NCBI GenBank assembly: GCA_964401185.1
Contig: CAYNXQ010000001.1
Location: 1 to 28,819, forward strand
Source: an uncultured Gammaproteobacteria bacterium
GTDB taxonomy: Bacteria; Patescibacteriota; Patescibacteriia; Magasanikbacterales; UBA922
Reading direction: 5' to 3'
Length of the DNA stretch: 28,819 nucleotides
In this document: piece by piece, positions 6,014 to 11,088 of the stretch
Layout of the letters: each line of letters starts with the position of its first letter
Numbering within the stretch: the stretch's first letter is position 1
Made by a program: the position numbers and the translations under genes
The notes under the pieces: generated by a model
What the model was told of the DNA's origin: nothing
The model's input: only the letters and a program-made list of their open reading frames with translations
Database searches by the model: none

Positions 6014-6042
6014 TTGACAAAAGCTTGGTTATATGGTATAAA
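6014..6042 (+). promoter_or_regulatory. sigma70 promoter of the GC-rich block
   Basis: TTGACA (6014-6019)-N17-TATAAA (6037-6042) with TGn. Confidence 0.8.
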
Positions 6043-6160
6043 GATATGTCTTGTTCTTTAGAACGCAGGAAGGGATTTTTCGGCTGGGTATAGCCGAGAA
6101 AGTATCTTTTTGCCATACAACCAGGCAGTGCGAAAGCGCTGCCACAAACAGGAGGACAGC

Positions 6161-7672
6161 ATGACGACGGAACGGAAGTGCGTGATTTACAGGAGCTCCT
6201 CGGTGGGGCTCATCTCTACAAGCTACCGGATTCGCGGAATCGAATCCGGTTGGATCCTGATCGAGGGGGACAAAGACCTCCCCGAAGATGGGAAGAAGGT
6301 CGTGTTCCTCGTCTCCGCAGATCCGAAGGATTTGCGGATCGAGGCCACGGTTTGCTCTCTGGGGAGAGAGGATCTGGTCGCGCTGGAAGTGTCGACCAAC
6401 CTCGATCCTCGGGATTGGGCTTGGCTCGATAGCCTGTCCGAGGATCTGATCAAAATCAAGATCCAAAATCCGGTGCCAGCGATGACGCCTACCCAAGAGC
6501 CAGATGTGGAGAGGCGAACCGAACCGTCCACGAGGACGTGCGATGTGAAGACGCCGGCCGAGGCGCTGGCACAGCCGGCAGCCACACCGACGCCCGAGAT
6601 CATTGCAATTCGCAATGAGACTCTTCCTGGGTTTGACCCGGTCGAAGGCAGCAGCAAGTCGCTGCAGCCACCTGCCTGCGCAGTCAGGCCGCCGATGCCC
6701 AAGAAGACTCCACCTCCGCGGCAGCAAGCTGGACTTTTCCGTATGGCTGGTCCGAAACGAACGGACGCGCCAAATACGGATGTGATCCCAGGCCGAGAAA
6801 ATCGGCCGAAAGGAGATCGAACAATGCTGACGGGAAATAGCGGTGATCGTTCACCGCAACCGATTGTTCTGCCGATTCTCGGCGGACCGGCGGAGAACGC
6901 TCCGCCGCCCAATGTGAGTCGTGGAAACGGACCTCCCAGGGATCCGCCGAAGGGTGGATCAGGTCGGCCGCCGCCGCCCAAGCCGCCGAAGAAAAGGAGC
7001 TGGGCGTGGCTGGGCTACGTGCTCGCTGCGCTCTTGCTGATCTTCCTCGGAATCTGGGGGGTCAGTGGGATCTCCAACTGGTGGAACGCCGGCGACATCG
7101 GCGCGAAGCCGGTGAAGGTGCATCGGATCACGCTCGACCTCCACGAGGACATGAATTTGTCCTCGTCCGAGGTGGCGCGGCTCGCGCGAGAGAACGATCA
7201 GATCGTGATCTCATGCGGGATCATCCGAACCACGAGCACTGCGAGTGTCGCTCGGATTCATCCGAACGAGGTCAAGGTGATCCGTGGATCTTTGGCCGAG
7301 ACGTGTCTGCGGTCGAGCGAGCACGGTGGGTGCCAGATCAGCTGCGAGCTGCCCGCCGAGCCTCCACCGAAGCCGGTGAAGGTCGTGACGAAGCGGGGGA
7401 TCTCGAAGCCGAGGTCCGCACCGCCCAAGCCGCCGGCACCGGTCGCCAAGACCGGACCGAAGCCCGAGCCGGTGATGCCACCGGTGGGATTCATCAAGTC
7501 GGACCTCACGGAGTGGGGCGACTGCGACGGCGGACGGCTGAAAGCGCACGATCTGGCGGCATGTTGCCGCAAGGAATTCGCGGCACAACCTGTCGGAACC
7601 CTCGACGAGTACAAGGAGGCCTGGGGATCGTACAAGACCTGTATGTCCCAGGTCCACGGAGGTGGAGAATGA
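6161..7672 (+). CDS. bitopic membrane protein: ~100-aa N-terminal domain (possibly PilZ-like), Pro-rich linker, TM, Cys-containing external part (503 aa)
   Basis: GGAGG SD 5 nt before ATG 6161; TM WAWLGYVLAALLLIFLGIWGV; two Pro/Lys-rich linkers; ATGA overlap with the next gene. Confidence 0.8.
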   Translation: MTTERKCVIYRSSSVGLISTSYRIRGIESGWILIEGDKDLPEDGKKVVFLVSADPKDLRIEATVCSLGREDLVALEVSTNLDPRDWAWLDSLSEDLIKIKIQNPVPAMTPTQEPDVERRTEPSTRTCDVKTPAEALAQPAATPTPEIIAIRNETLPGFDPVEGSSKSLQPPACAVRPPMPKKTPPPRQQAGLFRMAGPKRTDAPNTDVIPGRENRPKGDRTMLTGNSGDRSPQPIVLPILGGPAENAPPPNVSRGNGPPRDPPKGGSGRPPPPKPPKKRSWAWLGYVLAALLLIFLGIWGVSGISNWWNAGDIGAKPVKVHRITLDLHEDMNLSSSEVARLARENDQIVISCGIIRTTSTASVARIHPNEVKVIRGSLAETCLRSSEHGGCQISCELPAEPPPKPVKVVTKRGISKPRSAPPKPPAPVAKTGPKPEPVMPPVGFIKSDLTEWGDCDGGRLKAHDLAACCRKEFAAQPVGTLDEYKEAWGSYKTCMSQVHGGGE

Positions 7673-8427
7673 AACGTCTTACCTTTTTCCTGTTGGTCCT
7701 GGCCATCATCGGATTCGTCCGAATGGCCCGGGCCGATGATTCTCGCGACGTGGTCGCCTGTGTCGACTTCTTCTCGAAGAAGGCCGACAGTAAGGCGCTC
7801 ACCGCGCGGGATATCAAGCCCGCGATCGGATGTCTCCAGCGTGTGAGCCGAGAGACCTATCTCGGCATGCAGCACGCGATCGACAAACTGATCGCCATCC
7901 TCGGCAATTACGCCGAGAAGGGTGATCTGTCCCGGCTGGATGACAAACTTCGGACCCTCCAAAAGGAGGTGGAGGATCTGAAACAAGAGAAGTCTGGTCC
8001 GCGGGTCGGAGTCGCAGCTGGCGGCTTGGGGGTGATGAACCTCCATGAGGGTCTGTACCTGTTCCTCGAGGGAACACTCCAACTTCATGTTGGGGATTGG
8101 CTCCTCGAGGGTGGAGGACTCATCGGCGAATCGCCGGTCATTCCTGGTGAGTACAGCTACGGCGGCACTGGCGGACTTCTGTATCACCTCAGTGGTGAGA
8201 ATCCGTCGTGGTCGCTCGGGCTGTCCGGTCTCTACGTGAACAACGTGGGGACCGATGCGCCAGGATCCGCTGCCGAGATCTGGGGAGTTGGGCCAACCCT
8301 CCGCATGGAGATTGGGAAGGTGTCCTACATGAACACGTTCCTGCTCTATGGGCCTTCTCGCGACCTGTTTCACCGCCAGTCGGCAGGATCGCTGACGACG
8401 GGCCTCAGCCTGGGACTGTTCTTTTGA
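7669..8427 (+). CDS. secreted protein: helical/coiled-coil N-domain plus predicted 8-stranded beta-barrel ending in Phe (252 aa)
   Basis: Signal peptide MKRLTFFLLVLAIIGFVRMARA, coiled coil LSRLDDKLRTLQKEVEDLKQE, eight Gly/aromatic-rich amphipathic segments, C-terminus TTGLSLGLFF. SD GGAGG. Confidence 0.8.
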   Translation: MKRLTFFLLVLAIIGFVRMARADDSRDVVACVDFFSKKADSKALTARDIKPAIGCLQRVSRETYLGMQHAIDKLIAILGNYAEKGDLSRLDDKLRTLQKEVEDLKQEKSGPRVGVAAGGLGVMNLHEGLYLFLEGTLQLHVGDWLLEGGGLIGESPVIPGEYSYGGTGGLLYHLSGENPSWSLGLSGLYVNNVGTDAPGSAAEIWGVGPTLRMEIGKVSYMNTFLLYGPSRDLFHRQSAGSLTTGLSLGLFF

Positions 8428-8432
8428 TGATT

Positions 8433-8469
8433 GCGGTACGGGGATTCAAGGATTGAATCCCCGTACCGC
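8433..8469. repeat. perfect 17-bp inverted repeat
   Basis: GCGGTACGGGGATTCAA-GGA-TTGAATCCCCGTACCGC; no immediate U-tract on either strand. Confidence 0.85.
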
Positions 8470-8635
8470 ACCTATTTTCAGTTCAGAATCCACACGAAAG
8501 AAATTTCGATTGGATGTTCTGGATTGAAATCGGTTCTTTCAATCAAACAACTGCTGCGTCCAAGGGGATGCACAACCATCTCATCCGCCTTCGTCCGACT
8601 CGGTCGAGACTACGGCGTGATGATAGGAGAAAACG

Positions 8636-9994
8636 ATGAACAAGATTCTCGTGACCGCCATGATGGCGGCGATGACTCTGTCTCTGGTCGCGTGCGACTG
8701 GGGCAAAGTCGCGGAGCCGACGGCTCCGACCGCTGACAGCGGTGTCGCGACCGATGCCGCGTCCCCCGACGCCACGGACTGTGCGGGTCAGCAAGGCTGT
8801 GCTTGCTTCGGCAACTTCAGCTGCTACTCGCCATTCACGTGCGTCGGCGGCACGTGTAAAGAGCCATGCGACGGCAATCCGGGAGATATCCACTGTGGGT
8901 GTCTCACGGCCGGAACCACGCTCTGCAACGGCGGTCTCGTCTGCACGGCCGGGTCTTGCGAAGATCCGACCACGGTGGACGCTGGCATCGACAGCGGCGT
9001 GGCGGATTCGGGCATTGCCGTCGATTCTGGAATCGTGGATTCCGGCATCGCTGATACCGGAGTGACCGATTCGGGCGTCGCGGATTCTGGAGTCGCAGAC
9101 TCTGGTGTCGACAGCGGCGTTGGCGGCGGTTGCAACCCGGGAGACATCCACTGCGGGTGTCTCACTTCTGGAGCCGTACTCTGCCATGCAGGGCTTTCCT
9201 GCTCGAATGGCAGGTGCGAGGATCCGGGCACGCTGGACGCAGGCATTGATGCTGGGGTCGCAGACTCTGGCGTTGATACTGGGGTGGCGGATTCCGGAGT
9301 CGTTGACTCCGGGTTCATCGACAGTGGGACCGCTGACTCTGGTGTGGTGGTGGACTCGGGAGTCGTCGTCGATTCGGGTGTCGTGGATGCAGGCTTTGTC
9401 GATACCGGGGTCGTGGACTCTGGTGCCGACAGCGGCGTTGACGGCGGCTCGAACTGTCACGGCAACCTGGGAGACATCCACTGCGGGTGTCTCACATCTG
9501 GAGTCGTGCTCTGCAACGGCGGTCTCGTCTGCACGGCCGGGTCTTGCGAAGATCCGACCACGGATGCTGGCGTCGTCGTCGATTCGGGTGTCGTGGATGC
9601 AGGCTTCGTTGATACCGGGGTCGTGGACTCTGGGATCGGCACGGCGTGCAACGTCCAGAACGGACAGCGGATTCCTGGAGACGAAGGGTTCTTCTGCTTC
9701 CAGGGGAATCGCTACGAGTGCGATGACTCGTGGGGAGAGACGTCCGGTGGACAGCCGGGTAGCCGAATCGGGTCCAACCCGCGTCCGGATGGGAAATGTG
9801 ACGCGTACGACTACGACGGAGATTGCTACTGCGCAAGCGGTAGCTGCGTCGGGTCGAGCAACCCAGCCTGTACAGTTCTTCATGATGGAGACTGTGACGA
9901 GAGTTCGGCGGGCAACCACCCGGGTGCCCCCGACTGGCCGGGAGACAACTACGACAACGGGTGCATGTCCACCAGCACCAGCCAGTTCACTTAG
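8636..9994 (+). CDS. Cys-rich lipoprotein with repeated 6-Cys modules and D-[SAT]-G spacer repeats (452 aa)
   Basis: Lipobox LSLVA|C, SD AGGAG, three GDIHCGCLT..G..LC..GL.C..G.CEDP modules plus a related first module, 30 D-[SAT]-G tripeptides. Confidence 0.88.
   Translation: MNKILVTAMMAAMTLSLVACDWGKVAEPTAPTADSGVATDAASPDATDCAGQQGCACFGNFSCYSPFTCVGGTCKEPCDGNPGDIHCGCLTAGTTLCNGGLVCTAGSCEDPTTVDAGIDSGVADSGIAVDSGIVDSGIADTGVTDSGVADSGVADSGVDSGVGGGCNPGDIHCGCLTSGAVLCHAGLSCSNGRCEDPGTLDAGIDAGVADSGVDTGVADSGVVDSGFIDSGTADSGVVVDSGVVVDSGVVDAGFVDTGVVDSGADSGVDGGSNCHGNLGDIHCGCLTSGVVLCNGGLVCTAGSCEDPTTDAGVVVDSGVVDAGFVDTGVVDSGIGTACNVQNGQRIPGDEGFFCFQGNRYECDDSWGETSGGQPGSRIGSNPRPDGKCDAYDYDGDCYCASGSCVGSSNPACTVLHDGDCDESSAGNHPGAPDWPGDNYDNGCMSTSTSQFT
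8920..9633 (+). repeat. intragenic direct repeats in the lipoprotein gene
   Basis: 56-nt identical copies at 8920-8975 and 9508-9563; 62-nt copies with 2 synonymous differences at 9362-9423 and 9572-9633. Confidence 0.9.
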
Positions 9995-10244
9995 ACCGCA
10001 CCCACCTCGGTGCACGCGGTCGTCCCGACTCAGTCGGGATAAAGCACCAGCCCAGTATCACTTTTTTCAAAAGTGGTTCTGGGCATCTCATTCAGCTAAG
10101 AATTTCTTGTCTTGCCAAAGCCTTGGCGACGGCAGATTCTTGGTTGATAGGATAAAAAAGTTCTTTCAAATCGTTCTCGCATCCGAGGCCTCTGGTCTCA
10201 TGGAAAGGCACAATGGTGTGCCCAATAGATGCACAGGAGGAAAT

Positions 10245-11042
10245 GTGCACAACAACAAGTGGGTGGCGACCATCGCCAACCTGGCCATGAGGTTTTTCAT
10301 GGCAGTCTTCCCCATCGTCGCAGGCCTGGTGGCTTGCGGCGGCGGGCTCGAGGCTGTGGGCTCCGTCAACGGAGCGTGCTACGGCAACGGCACCTGCGAC
10401 ATGGGTCTGGTCTGCGCGCCGACGACCAGAATCTGCGTCGCGACCGATGGCGGGACCGGCAACGGTCCTGACAGCGGCGCGCCGATCGTCTGTGACAACC
10501 AGCACGCCGGTGCTGGTTGCCCCTGCTATGGCAACGGCTCGTGCGACATGGGAGCCGCGTGCAACGCGACGACCAAGAAGTGCGAGACGCCGGACAGCGG
10601 CGTGGTGGTCACCGACAGTGGCACCACGATCGTCGACACCGACGCCGGAGTGGCGAGCACCGACGGTGGTGTCACGACCTATGCCGACGCATCCAGCCCG
10701 ACCCCGGTGCCGAATTCGTGCACCAATGCGATGGGTGGCGCCGGGTTCAAGAATGTGAACTCGGGATCGCTCGACCTCCTGGTCGGGAAGACCTGGCTCG
10801 GCGGGTCCAACGAGACCGACTACTGGGGCTTCGGCTCCGGTCAGTCGATCGTCGACTGCGGCGCGACCGGCTTCTACATGCGGTCGGAGGGCTGGAACGC
10901 CTGGATCGCCAGGAGTCAGTCGGACCGCATCTCGTGGTGCCAGGCCAACATCTCTTGTCGTGATCGCGATGGTGTGTGGTACACGCCGCAGCATCTGACG
11001 GGGGATGGCCTCAACTGCGAATGCAGCTGGGATCGTCAGTAG
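10245..11042 (+). CDS. second Cys-rich lipoprotein (about 265 aa; alternative start ATG 10287)
   Basis: AGGAGG SD before GTG 10245; lipobox GLVA|C; two CYGNG(T/S)CDMG..C modules; DSG/DAG linker; Trp/Cys-rich C-domain. Confidence 0.82.
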   Translation: MHNNKWVATIANLAMRFFMAVFPIVAGLVACGGGLEAVGSVNGACYGNGTCDMGLVCAPTTRICVATDGGTGNGPDSGAPIVCDNQHAGAGCPCYGNGSCDMGAACNATTKKCETPDSGVVVTDSGTTIVDTDAGVASTDGGVTTYADASSPTPVPNSCTNAMGGAGFKNVNSGSLDLLVGKTWLGGSNETDYWGFGSGQSIVDCGATGFYMRSEGWNAWIARSQSDRISWCQANISCRDRDGVWYTPQHLTGDGLNCECSWDRQ

Positions 11043-11051
11043 TCAATTCAT

Positions 11052-11088
11052 GACCCTTCAAAGCGAAAGCTTTGGAGGGTCTCTTTTT
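11052..11088 (+). terminator. intrinsic terminator closing the GC-rich block
   Basis: GACCCTTCAAAGC-GAAA-GCTTTGGAGGGTC followed by TCTTTTT. Confidence 0.8.

Follow-up and report, generated by a model that had tools for sequence, protein, structure and literature searches.

A candidate stalked eight-stranded β-barrel protein in a hypervariable surface-gene slot of a Magasanikbacteria-type bacterium

Main

To our knowledge, outer-membrane (OM)-type β-barrels exist only where the β-barrel assembly machinery (BAM/Omp85) builds an outer membrane; small barrels can fold and insert without BAM in vitro. The described systems closest to the gene studied here are the small eight-stranded OM barrels (OmpX/Ail, the OmpA N-domain, OmpW, PagP/PagL and NspA; PF13505 clan), the OmpM/SlpA-type tethers of diderm Terrabacteria, which combine an SLH domain, a coiled-coil stalk and a porin barrel of 16–18 strands, and the trimeric autotransporter adhesins (type Vc), which need BAM. 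Our gene, g2, occupies positions 7669–8427 of the forward strand of a 28,819-nucleotide stretch (contig CAYNXQ010000001.1, assembly GCA_964401185.1), hereafter the window. It is the second of four co-oriented genes, g1–g4, in a genome of the Candidate Phyla Radiation (CPR), a lineage usually placed with or near the Terrabacteria, although this placement is debated.

At the level of sequence, the C-terminal part (‘tail’) of g2 resembles the small OM barrels in length (144 amino acids, against 148 for OmpX), in its eight amphipathic segments of 10–14 residues with an uncharged hydrophobic face, in having short turns on one side, longer loops opposite them and both ends on the same side, and in being Gly-rich with an aromatic end that follows alternating hydrophobic residues. 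It also equals OmpX and OmpA in the segmentation score described below, and its ESM neighbours are exactly the small OM barrel families. Unlike those proteins, g2 has no hidden Markov model (HMM) match, fewer aromatics, very short loops and an N-terminal helical stalk; unlike their hosts, its organism is, as judged from the genome, without BAM, Skp, lipopolysaccharide (LPS) or an outer membrane, and the g2 fold is a candidate. The order of signal peptide, coiled-coil stalk and C-terminal barrel (predicted, for g2) is that of OmpM/SlpA, but g2 carries no SLH domain (Pfam), would have 8 rather than 16–18 strands and has a short stalk. With type Vc adhesins it shares a coiled-coil stalk leading into an aromatic-ended, anchor-like C-terminal β domain; unlike them (4 strands in about 70–90 amino acids per chain), it has 8 segments in 144 amino acids, no YadA_anchor (PF03895) match and no head or passenger, its mature N-terminal part being ~85 residues long.

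Results

The g2 open reading frame (ORF) runs exactly from 7669 to 8427 (+) and translates into 252 amino acids. Its features are as follows.

7658–7667, + strand: Shine–Dalgarno (SD) site of g2, GGAGGTGGAG, read from the sequence
7669–7740, + strand: signal peptide, residues 1–24, with an h-region and cleavage after ARA (ARA/DD), from the sequence and an AlphaFold2 (AF2) helix at 3–19
7741–7992, + strand: helical/coiled-coil stalk, residues 25–108, with two Cys, from AF2 helices, amphipathicity and PDB matches
7993–8427, + strand: all-β C-terminal domain, residues 109–252, ending in LGLFF and the stop codon; candidate 8-stranded OM-type barrel, from the dynamic-programming (DP) test, ESM neighbours and an AF2 domain model
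8432–8470, + strand: intrinsic terminator, an 18-bp stem followed by a T run, from the hairpin scan

We conclude that g2 is a real gene because its frame has a coding GC pattern (0.64/0.42/0.71 at codon positions 1/2/3) that is absent from the overlapping rival frames, its SD site is strong, its ATG shares bases with the stop codon that ends g1 just upstream (ATGA) and a hairpin terminator follows it. The ORF thus stands where the initial annotation had placed it. The Sec signal and helical stalk proposed there were also found: the h-region is followed by the ARA/DD site, AF2 built stalk helices at residues 26–40, 46–62, 65–84 and 90–109 with a predicted local distance difference test score (pLDDT) of 60–80, and the α-periodic hydrophobic moment of the stalk had a z of 2.2–2.9. 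PDB matches of g2 consisted of coiled-coil noise only. After signal-peptide cleavage, no other anchor is apparent in the g2 sequence.

The tail comprises 144 residues (20% Gly, 17% Leu and 10% aromatic), in which eight candidate strands had been proposed. We segmented it with our own DP procedure, which places 8 strands of 9–14 residues whose positions face outward and inward in turn, leaves the loops free, is calibrated with E. coli K-12 proteins and expresses scores as z against shuffles (300 for g2). Residues 109–252 gave a z of 3.47, with 0/300 shuffles reaching the score, and 0.60 per residue. The controls OmpX, OmpA N-domain, OmpW and PagP gave z of 3.9, 5.0, 2.4 and 1.85, respectively, at 0.47–0.58 per residue (OmpX 0.58; OmpA 0.57), eight soluble β controls (Fim subunits, FimC, LptA and LptC) gave −1.0 to 1.8, and helical or α/β proteins about −2. 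A first, crude strand counter had been dropped, as it did not tell outer-membrane proteins (OMPs) apart from helical membrane proteins.

The strands traced in g2 were residues 112–125, 128–141, 144–153, 162–175, 180–190, 204–216, 218–227 and 239–252. This independent test recovered the same set of eight as had been annotated; their closure into a barrel was left unconfirmed by a low-confidence AF2 model. Not one of the 48 outward positions in the eight segments is charged, so that the outward face is hydrophobic throughout, and the score rises up to, and then plateaus at, 8 strands. The connections are turns of 2, 4 and 1 residues on the stalk side and loops of 2, 8, 13 and 11 residues on the far side. 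Across the whole proteome (769+ ORFs), the g2 tail was the best-scoring 144-residue window.

In the ESM Atlas, the feature neighbours of residues 109–252 were solely small OM barrel families (PF13505, PagL, TraO and DUF2715, at 0.94), with no soluble β family among them, and those of the whole protein included PF13505 clusters. We take these neighbours as a lead, not as proof.

The genome (0.89 Mb in 138 contigs, of which the window is one whole 28.8-kb contig) is 98.9% complete, and profile searches of it found no Omp85, POTRA, LptD, LpxC, OMP_b-brl, Skp (OmpH) or TolC-type OEP; run on diderm control genomes, these searches did give matches. Omp85 was found in 0/107 genomes of the same family. 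Ribosomal protein L30 is absent from the genome, a CPR hallmark. The suggestion that the host has no BAM or outer-membrane machinery of its own was thus borne out: neither BamA nor LPS genes, which were named in advance as speaking against an OM-type barrel in a monoderm, turned up in the genome, and modelling yielded no fold with confidence.

The surroundings of g2 differ from the rest of the genome. A block at ~6100–11050 is the most GC-rich stretch of the genome (0.60–0.62, against 0.50 ± 0.024) and contains its four most GC-rich 2-kb windows. It consists of g1–g4, all with intact ORFs, together with a promoter and terminators; GC at third codon positions (GC3) is 0.70–0.82 in this cassette against 0.54 ± 0.07 in the genome, and SD sites precede 4/4 cassette genes but 0/13 backbone genes in the window. 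Between its genes, the block has a GC content like that of the backbone, and the GC profile falls to backbone level at about 11050. The further features of the cassette are these.

6014–6042, + strand: promoter-like site of the cassette, TTGACA, 17 nt, TATAAA, read from the sequence
6076–6101, + strand: terminator-like hairpin and T run in the 5′ leader of g1, between promoter and start codon, from the hairpin scan
6161–7672, + strand: g1, 503-amino-acid bitopic membrane protein, from its translation, with SD site AGGAGG
8636–9994, + strand: g3, 452-amino-acid Cys-rich modular lipoprotein with an LVAC lipobox and D-S-G spacers, with SD site AGGAG
10245–11042, + strand: g4, Cys-rich lipoprotein of about 265 amino acids with a GTG start and an LVAC lipobox, from the sequence, with an SD site
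11052–11081, + strand: terminator hairpin common to g4 and the convergent Wzy gene, at the right edge of the block, from the hairpin scan

Our promoter scan had missed the site at 6014–6042, its rule demanding T as the sixth base of the −10 hexamer. As judged from its position and form, the hairpin at 6076–6101 may control the cassette as an attenuator or in a riboswitch-like manner. In g1, an N-terminal cytoplasmic domain and a Pro-rich linker lead to a transmembrane (TM) helix at about residues 280–300 (SWAWLGYVLAAL...), outside which lie a KP-rich spacer and a Cys-containing tail. None of g1–g4 scored above a Pfam cut-off: g1 had no Pfam family and no homologue in 5.8 billion clusters, g3 had a weak MopE motif (PF11617, E 0.0017, below the cut-off) and g4 had weak matches only. 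To the left, the cassette is flanked by genes for L20, IF3, SmpB, a membrane protein, a PDZ protein and Wzz, and to the right by Wzy and then two GT4 glycosyltransferases. The window also holds an S-layer-like 1259-amino-acid gene.

GC3-rich genes (GC3 0.75–0.91) that are not envelope genes were also seen elsewhere in this genome, G000, including one for a K/E-rich 451-amino-acid protein and a paralogue pair (C39:6575–7930 (−), C56:5169–5777, C64:1954–2616, C15:12270–12941 and C47:5513–6898); this GC-rich style of coding thus extends beyond the cassette.

Three genomes of another genus in the same family, G620, G621 and G624, carry a comparable arrangement. There the order L20, IF3, SmpB, hypothetical protein, membrane protein, PDZ protein and Wzz leads into a GC-rich, SD-led cassette encoding a 462–482-amino-acid N-in/TM/C-out protein, a 306–349-amino-acid stalked β protein and Cys-rich lipoproteins. 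The 306–349-amino-acid proteins consist of a signal peptide, a coiled coil and a β domain of ~150 residues, and these β domains gave DP z of 3.9–4.7. The g2 domain aligned with the G620-type profile over 130 columns (hhalign P 0.015), and its HMM score against that profile was reached by 11/2000 composition-preserving shuffles. The alignment of the four proteins is collinear, with VGVAA and EIWG[AV]GP motifs in common, and the independently predicted in/out faces agree at 65–87% of shared strand columns. The first gene of these cassettes has the same architecture as g1, with W-x-W at the start of the TM helix (hhalign P 0.023). We consider g2 to be probably a fast-diverged positional orthologue of the G620, G621 and G624 proteins; its allele has diverged from the G620-type allele beyond recognition by BLAST.

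The slot after Wzz is hypervariable on a near-identical backbone, since between G620 and G621 Wzz is 99% identical whereas identity falls to 52% for the g1-like and 41% for the g2-like proteins (L049 425–988, 4848–7287; L036 10535–11131, 14887–17224). Among congeners, G001 has a different GC-rich (0.57–0.67), SD-led four-gene cassette beside Wzy, and in G002 the slot is empty, with a glycosyltransferase directly after Wzz. The C-terminal domain of g4 is shared with the last lipoprotein of the G001 cassette (G001_d464; blastp E 1.4e-6 in a small local database), and g4 also matched G485_307 (blastp E 9e-6 in the same kind of small local database; G485 E 5.9e-5 at whole-genome scale). In G001, a tandem pair of Ser/Thr-kinase-like genes separates Wzy from the cassette (L010 8296–9952 (−)).

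Profile searches with the g2 family through 107 family genomes, GTDB genomes and metagenomes found no members beyond G000, G620, G621 and G624. The g2 protein itself had no homologue but itself in 5.8 billion clusters, metagenome and viral contigs and 60 relatives, and an exhaustive phmmer search of 1.84 billion representatives gave no informative one. Four phmmer matches (P0002–P0005) were rejected as giant repeat proteins in which many weak repeat matches add up (pairwise with g2, 41% identity over 51 residues, E 4e-4).

Across the phylum, PF13505 scored above its cut-off in only 1/401 genomes. Other proteins with barrel-like features were met in passing. In the CPR genome G370 (34% GC), the genes for RuvC and topoisomerase I flank one for a 164-amino-acid signal-peptide protein (L019 1498–1992 (−)) that matches PF13505 weakly (E 4.9e-4), ends in GVGYNF and has a DP z of 4.4. 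In G005, a 65–70% GC island in a 36% GC genome encodes a 625-amino-acid secreted protein (L035 12296–14173 (−)) with thrombospondin type-3 repeats and a C-terminal β domain ending in PIGVYF (DP z 3.7). The ‘Patescibacteria’ genomes G226 and G294 hold a full OMP_b-brl protein and an autotransporter-like protein (L016 1336–2166; L020 1–2313); the latter gene stands at a contig start, with bin contamination possible.

The C-terminus of g2, L-S-L-G-L-F-F, does end in the Phe that had been noted, after alternating hydrophobic residues. Ends in F or W with hydrophobic residues at −2 and −4 occur in only 11/769 ORFs of the genome, none of those barrel-like. A terminal Phe is present in 2/4 probable family members, g2 and the G620 protein; the G621 protein ends in ...GRSL and the G624 protein in an acidic tail. 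Its presence aside, the proposal that this residue serves recognition by BamA was not supported: with no BamA in the lineage and the Phe not conserved, it is unlikely to be a BamA signal.

Discussion

With about even confidence, we read g2 as a Sec-exported stalked protein whose tail is an 8-stranded OM-type barrel-like domain, encoded in a native, hypervariable surface cassette. The data show that the gene is real, its domain layout, the barrel-like statistics of its sequence, the lack of BAM and LPS genes, the conserved slot and architecture and the hypervariability; closure of the barrel, the membrane or layer in which it resides, its partners and its function are what we infer from this material. 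In our reading, g2 is an envelope protein of a CPR bacterium of the Magasanikbacteria type, apparently expressed and exported by Sec, with its 144-residue tail most likely folding as a small antiparallel amphipathic barrel of eight strands like OmpX, OmpA-N or OMP_b-brl, its turns short on the stalk side and its loops longer on the far side. It forms part of a four-gene surface module (bitopic g1, stalked barrel g2 and the Cys-rich lipoproteins g3 and g4) that is native to the lineage, is fixed in a slot downstream of a Wzz-like gene, in a surface-polysaccharide locus, and diverges far faster than the backbone. Such hypervariability accounts for the absence of detectable g2 homologues outside one other genus. 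As the lineage has no BAM, the barrel would presumably fold and insert by itself. The stalk, possibly oligomeric, and the tail may join g1 and the lipoproteins in a surface complex, in which the tail could be a membrane- or layer-embedded anchor or pore; it might enter the producer's own membrane from the outside, a proteinaceous outer layer or a partner cell's membrane.

Several results weigh against this reading, and many of them would suit a tail that is a Gly-rich amphipathic β domain outside any membrane, such as a sandwich or a self-associating or lattice module of a proteinaceous or glycan-linked surface layer, held there by the coiled-coil stalk, g1 and the lipoproteins. We know of no way to house an OM-type barrel in a monoderm, and the lineage has neither an outer membrane nor BAM. 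The tail matched no OMP family: Pfam gave g2 no match even at E ≤ 10, to SLH or any other domain, a PF13505 (OMP_b-brl) profile search of the whole genome found nothing at E ≤ 1, and NCBIfam and PDB sequence and profile searches found no OMP-family match for the β domain. An AlphaFold check had been proposed, and AF2 without an alignment did return an all-β domain model with eight strands, but at a mean pLDDT of 46.8 for the whole of g2 and 39.7 for the domain alone; at about 40 the domain-only model is untrustworthy, AF2 gave no confident closed barrel or other fold, and we discarded Foldseek matches of the poor g2 model as meaningless.

The DP margin of g2 within its own genome is also small (0.60 against 0.589), and large CPR surface proteins reach 0.55–0.59, nearly as high. 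A simple β hydrophobic-moment test did not separate the g2 domain from shuffles (z 0.4–1.5), although this test is underpowered, OmpX and PagP having failed it too (z about 0.5–1.2). Aromatics make up 10% of the g2 domain against 13–20% in four E. coli barrels, soluble Fim subunits reach a z of 1.7–1.8 with similar charge and grand average of hydropathy, and an argument for membrane embedding from low charge was dropped, FimA being equally poor in charged residues. The homology to the G620 family combines weak statistics with synteny, and a 22-residue block of g2 between strands 3 and 4 has no counterpart in the four-way alignment, which makes strand-for-strand equivalence uncertain. The surface-polysaccharide locus and the S-layer-like gene in the window would fit a surface-layer module as well. 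Set against a non-membrane domain are the z and per-residue score of g2, which lie above all eight soluble controls and within the range of OmpX and OmpA, its eight strands of 10–14 residues with a continuous uncharged hydrophobic face, and language-model neighbours that are all OM barrels. We regard the non-membrane alternative as doubtful, though to be taken seriously.

A stalked barrel might instead be an exported effector or grappling device that enters a partner (host) cell's membrane, its hypervariability then being the mark of an arms race against hosts or phages. Episymbiosis is common among CPR bacteria, and small barrels can insert without BAM in vitro, as noted; the producer has no outer membrane or BAM of its own, g2 has no other anchor once its signal peptide is cleaved, and, next to a Wzz that is 99% identical, the cassette has diverged extremely quickly. 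Yet nothing on any host is in evidence, no toxin-like domain or secretion system is encoded in the cassette, the membrane protein and lipoproteins encoded alongside g2 suggest a complex that sits on the surface of the producer itself, and the terminal aromatic that a host BAM could read is not conserved. We hold such a device to be quite unlikely.

The 5-kb block could also have been acquired recently, by horizontal transfer from a diderm of high GC (such as one like a myxobacterium), with g2 a displaced OMP that has no working role. This was the explanation favoured at first, as the GC content, GC3 and SD usage set the block apart from its genome, its Cys-rich lipoproteins include a weak MopE motif, 60 relatives lack g2 and G002 has nothing at the syntenic site. 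We rejected it on account of the conserved slot and architecture in relatives, and now see it as very improbable. An equally GC-rich, SD-led cassette with a probable remote g2 homologue occupies the same slot in another genus, and a congener has a related cassette. No donor or homologue of g1 or g2 was found in 5.8 billion clusters, nor of g2 in 1.84 billion representatives, and g4 had weak matches only. The intergenic GC is backbone-like, the block has no integrase, tRNA or flanking repeat, its right end shares a terminator with Wzy and its four ORFs are intact, with promoter and terminators. For the same reasons, the initial picture of a displaced diderm protein in need of a host envelope gives way to that of a native, positionally conserved and hypervariable cassette.

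That g2 is an artefact of chimeric assembly or a non-coding ORF within GC-rich DNA is a negligible prospect: long spurious ORFs do arise in several frames here and the genome is a 138-contig metagenome-assembled genome with 3.35% contamination, but both flanks of the block are backbone genes ordered as in relatives (L20, IF3, SmpB and Wzz; Wzy, GT4 and GT4), the g2 frame has a coding GC pattern that its rivals lack, the gene has an SD site, start/stop coupling and a terminator, and an equal gene architecture recurs in independent assemblies.

Our literature searches found no paper describing OM-type barrels in CPR bacteria, and the cassette phenomenon is apparently unpublished. Going beyond g2 itself, the broader proposition that this CPR family routinely equips a hypervariable surface module with 8-stranded barrels that stand on coiled-coil stalks and assemble without BAM is unlikely in our estimation. 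If it were true, these ‘monoderm’ cells would have an unrecognised outer layer that contains barrels, or the barrels would plug into the membrane of a partner cell, and the GC-rich, SD-led style would mark a class of separately regulated, rapidly exchanged surface-antigen genes. A stalked barrel in a CPR bacterium without BAM would mean BAM-free assembly in vivo, an undescribed outer layer or a device acting on the membrane of another cell. The cassette keeps its foreign-looking, GC-rich and SD-led style at a fixed locus, with 41–52% identity beside a 99%-identical gene, and such divergence is how a surface-antigen locus behaves when the pressure to diversify is strong. The cassette thereby bears on how uncultured episymbionts interact with their hosts and phages.

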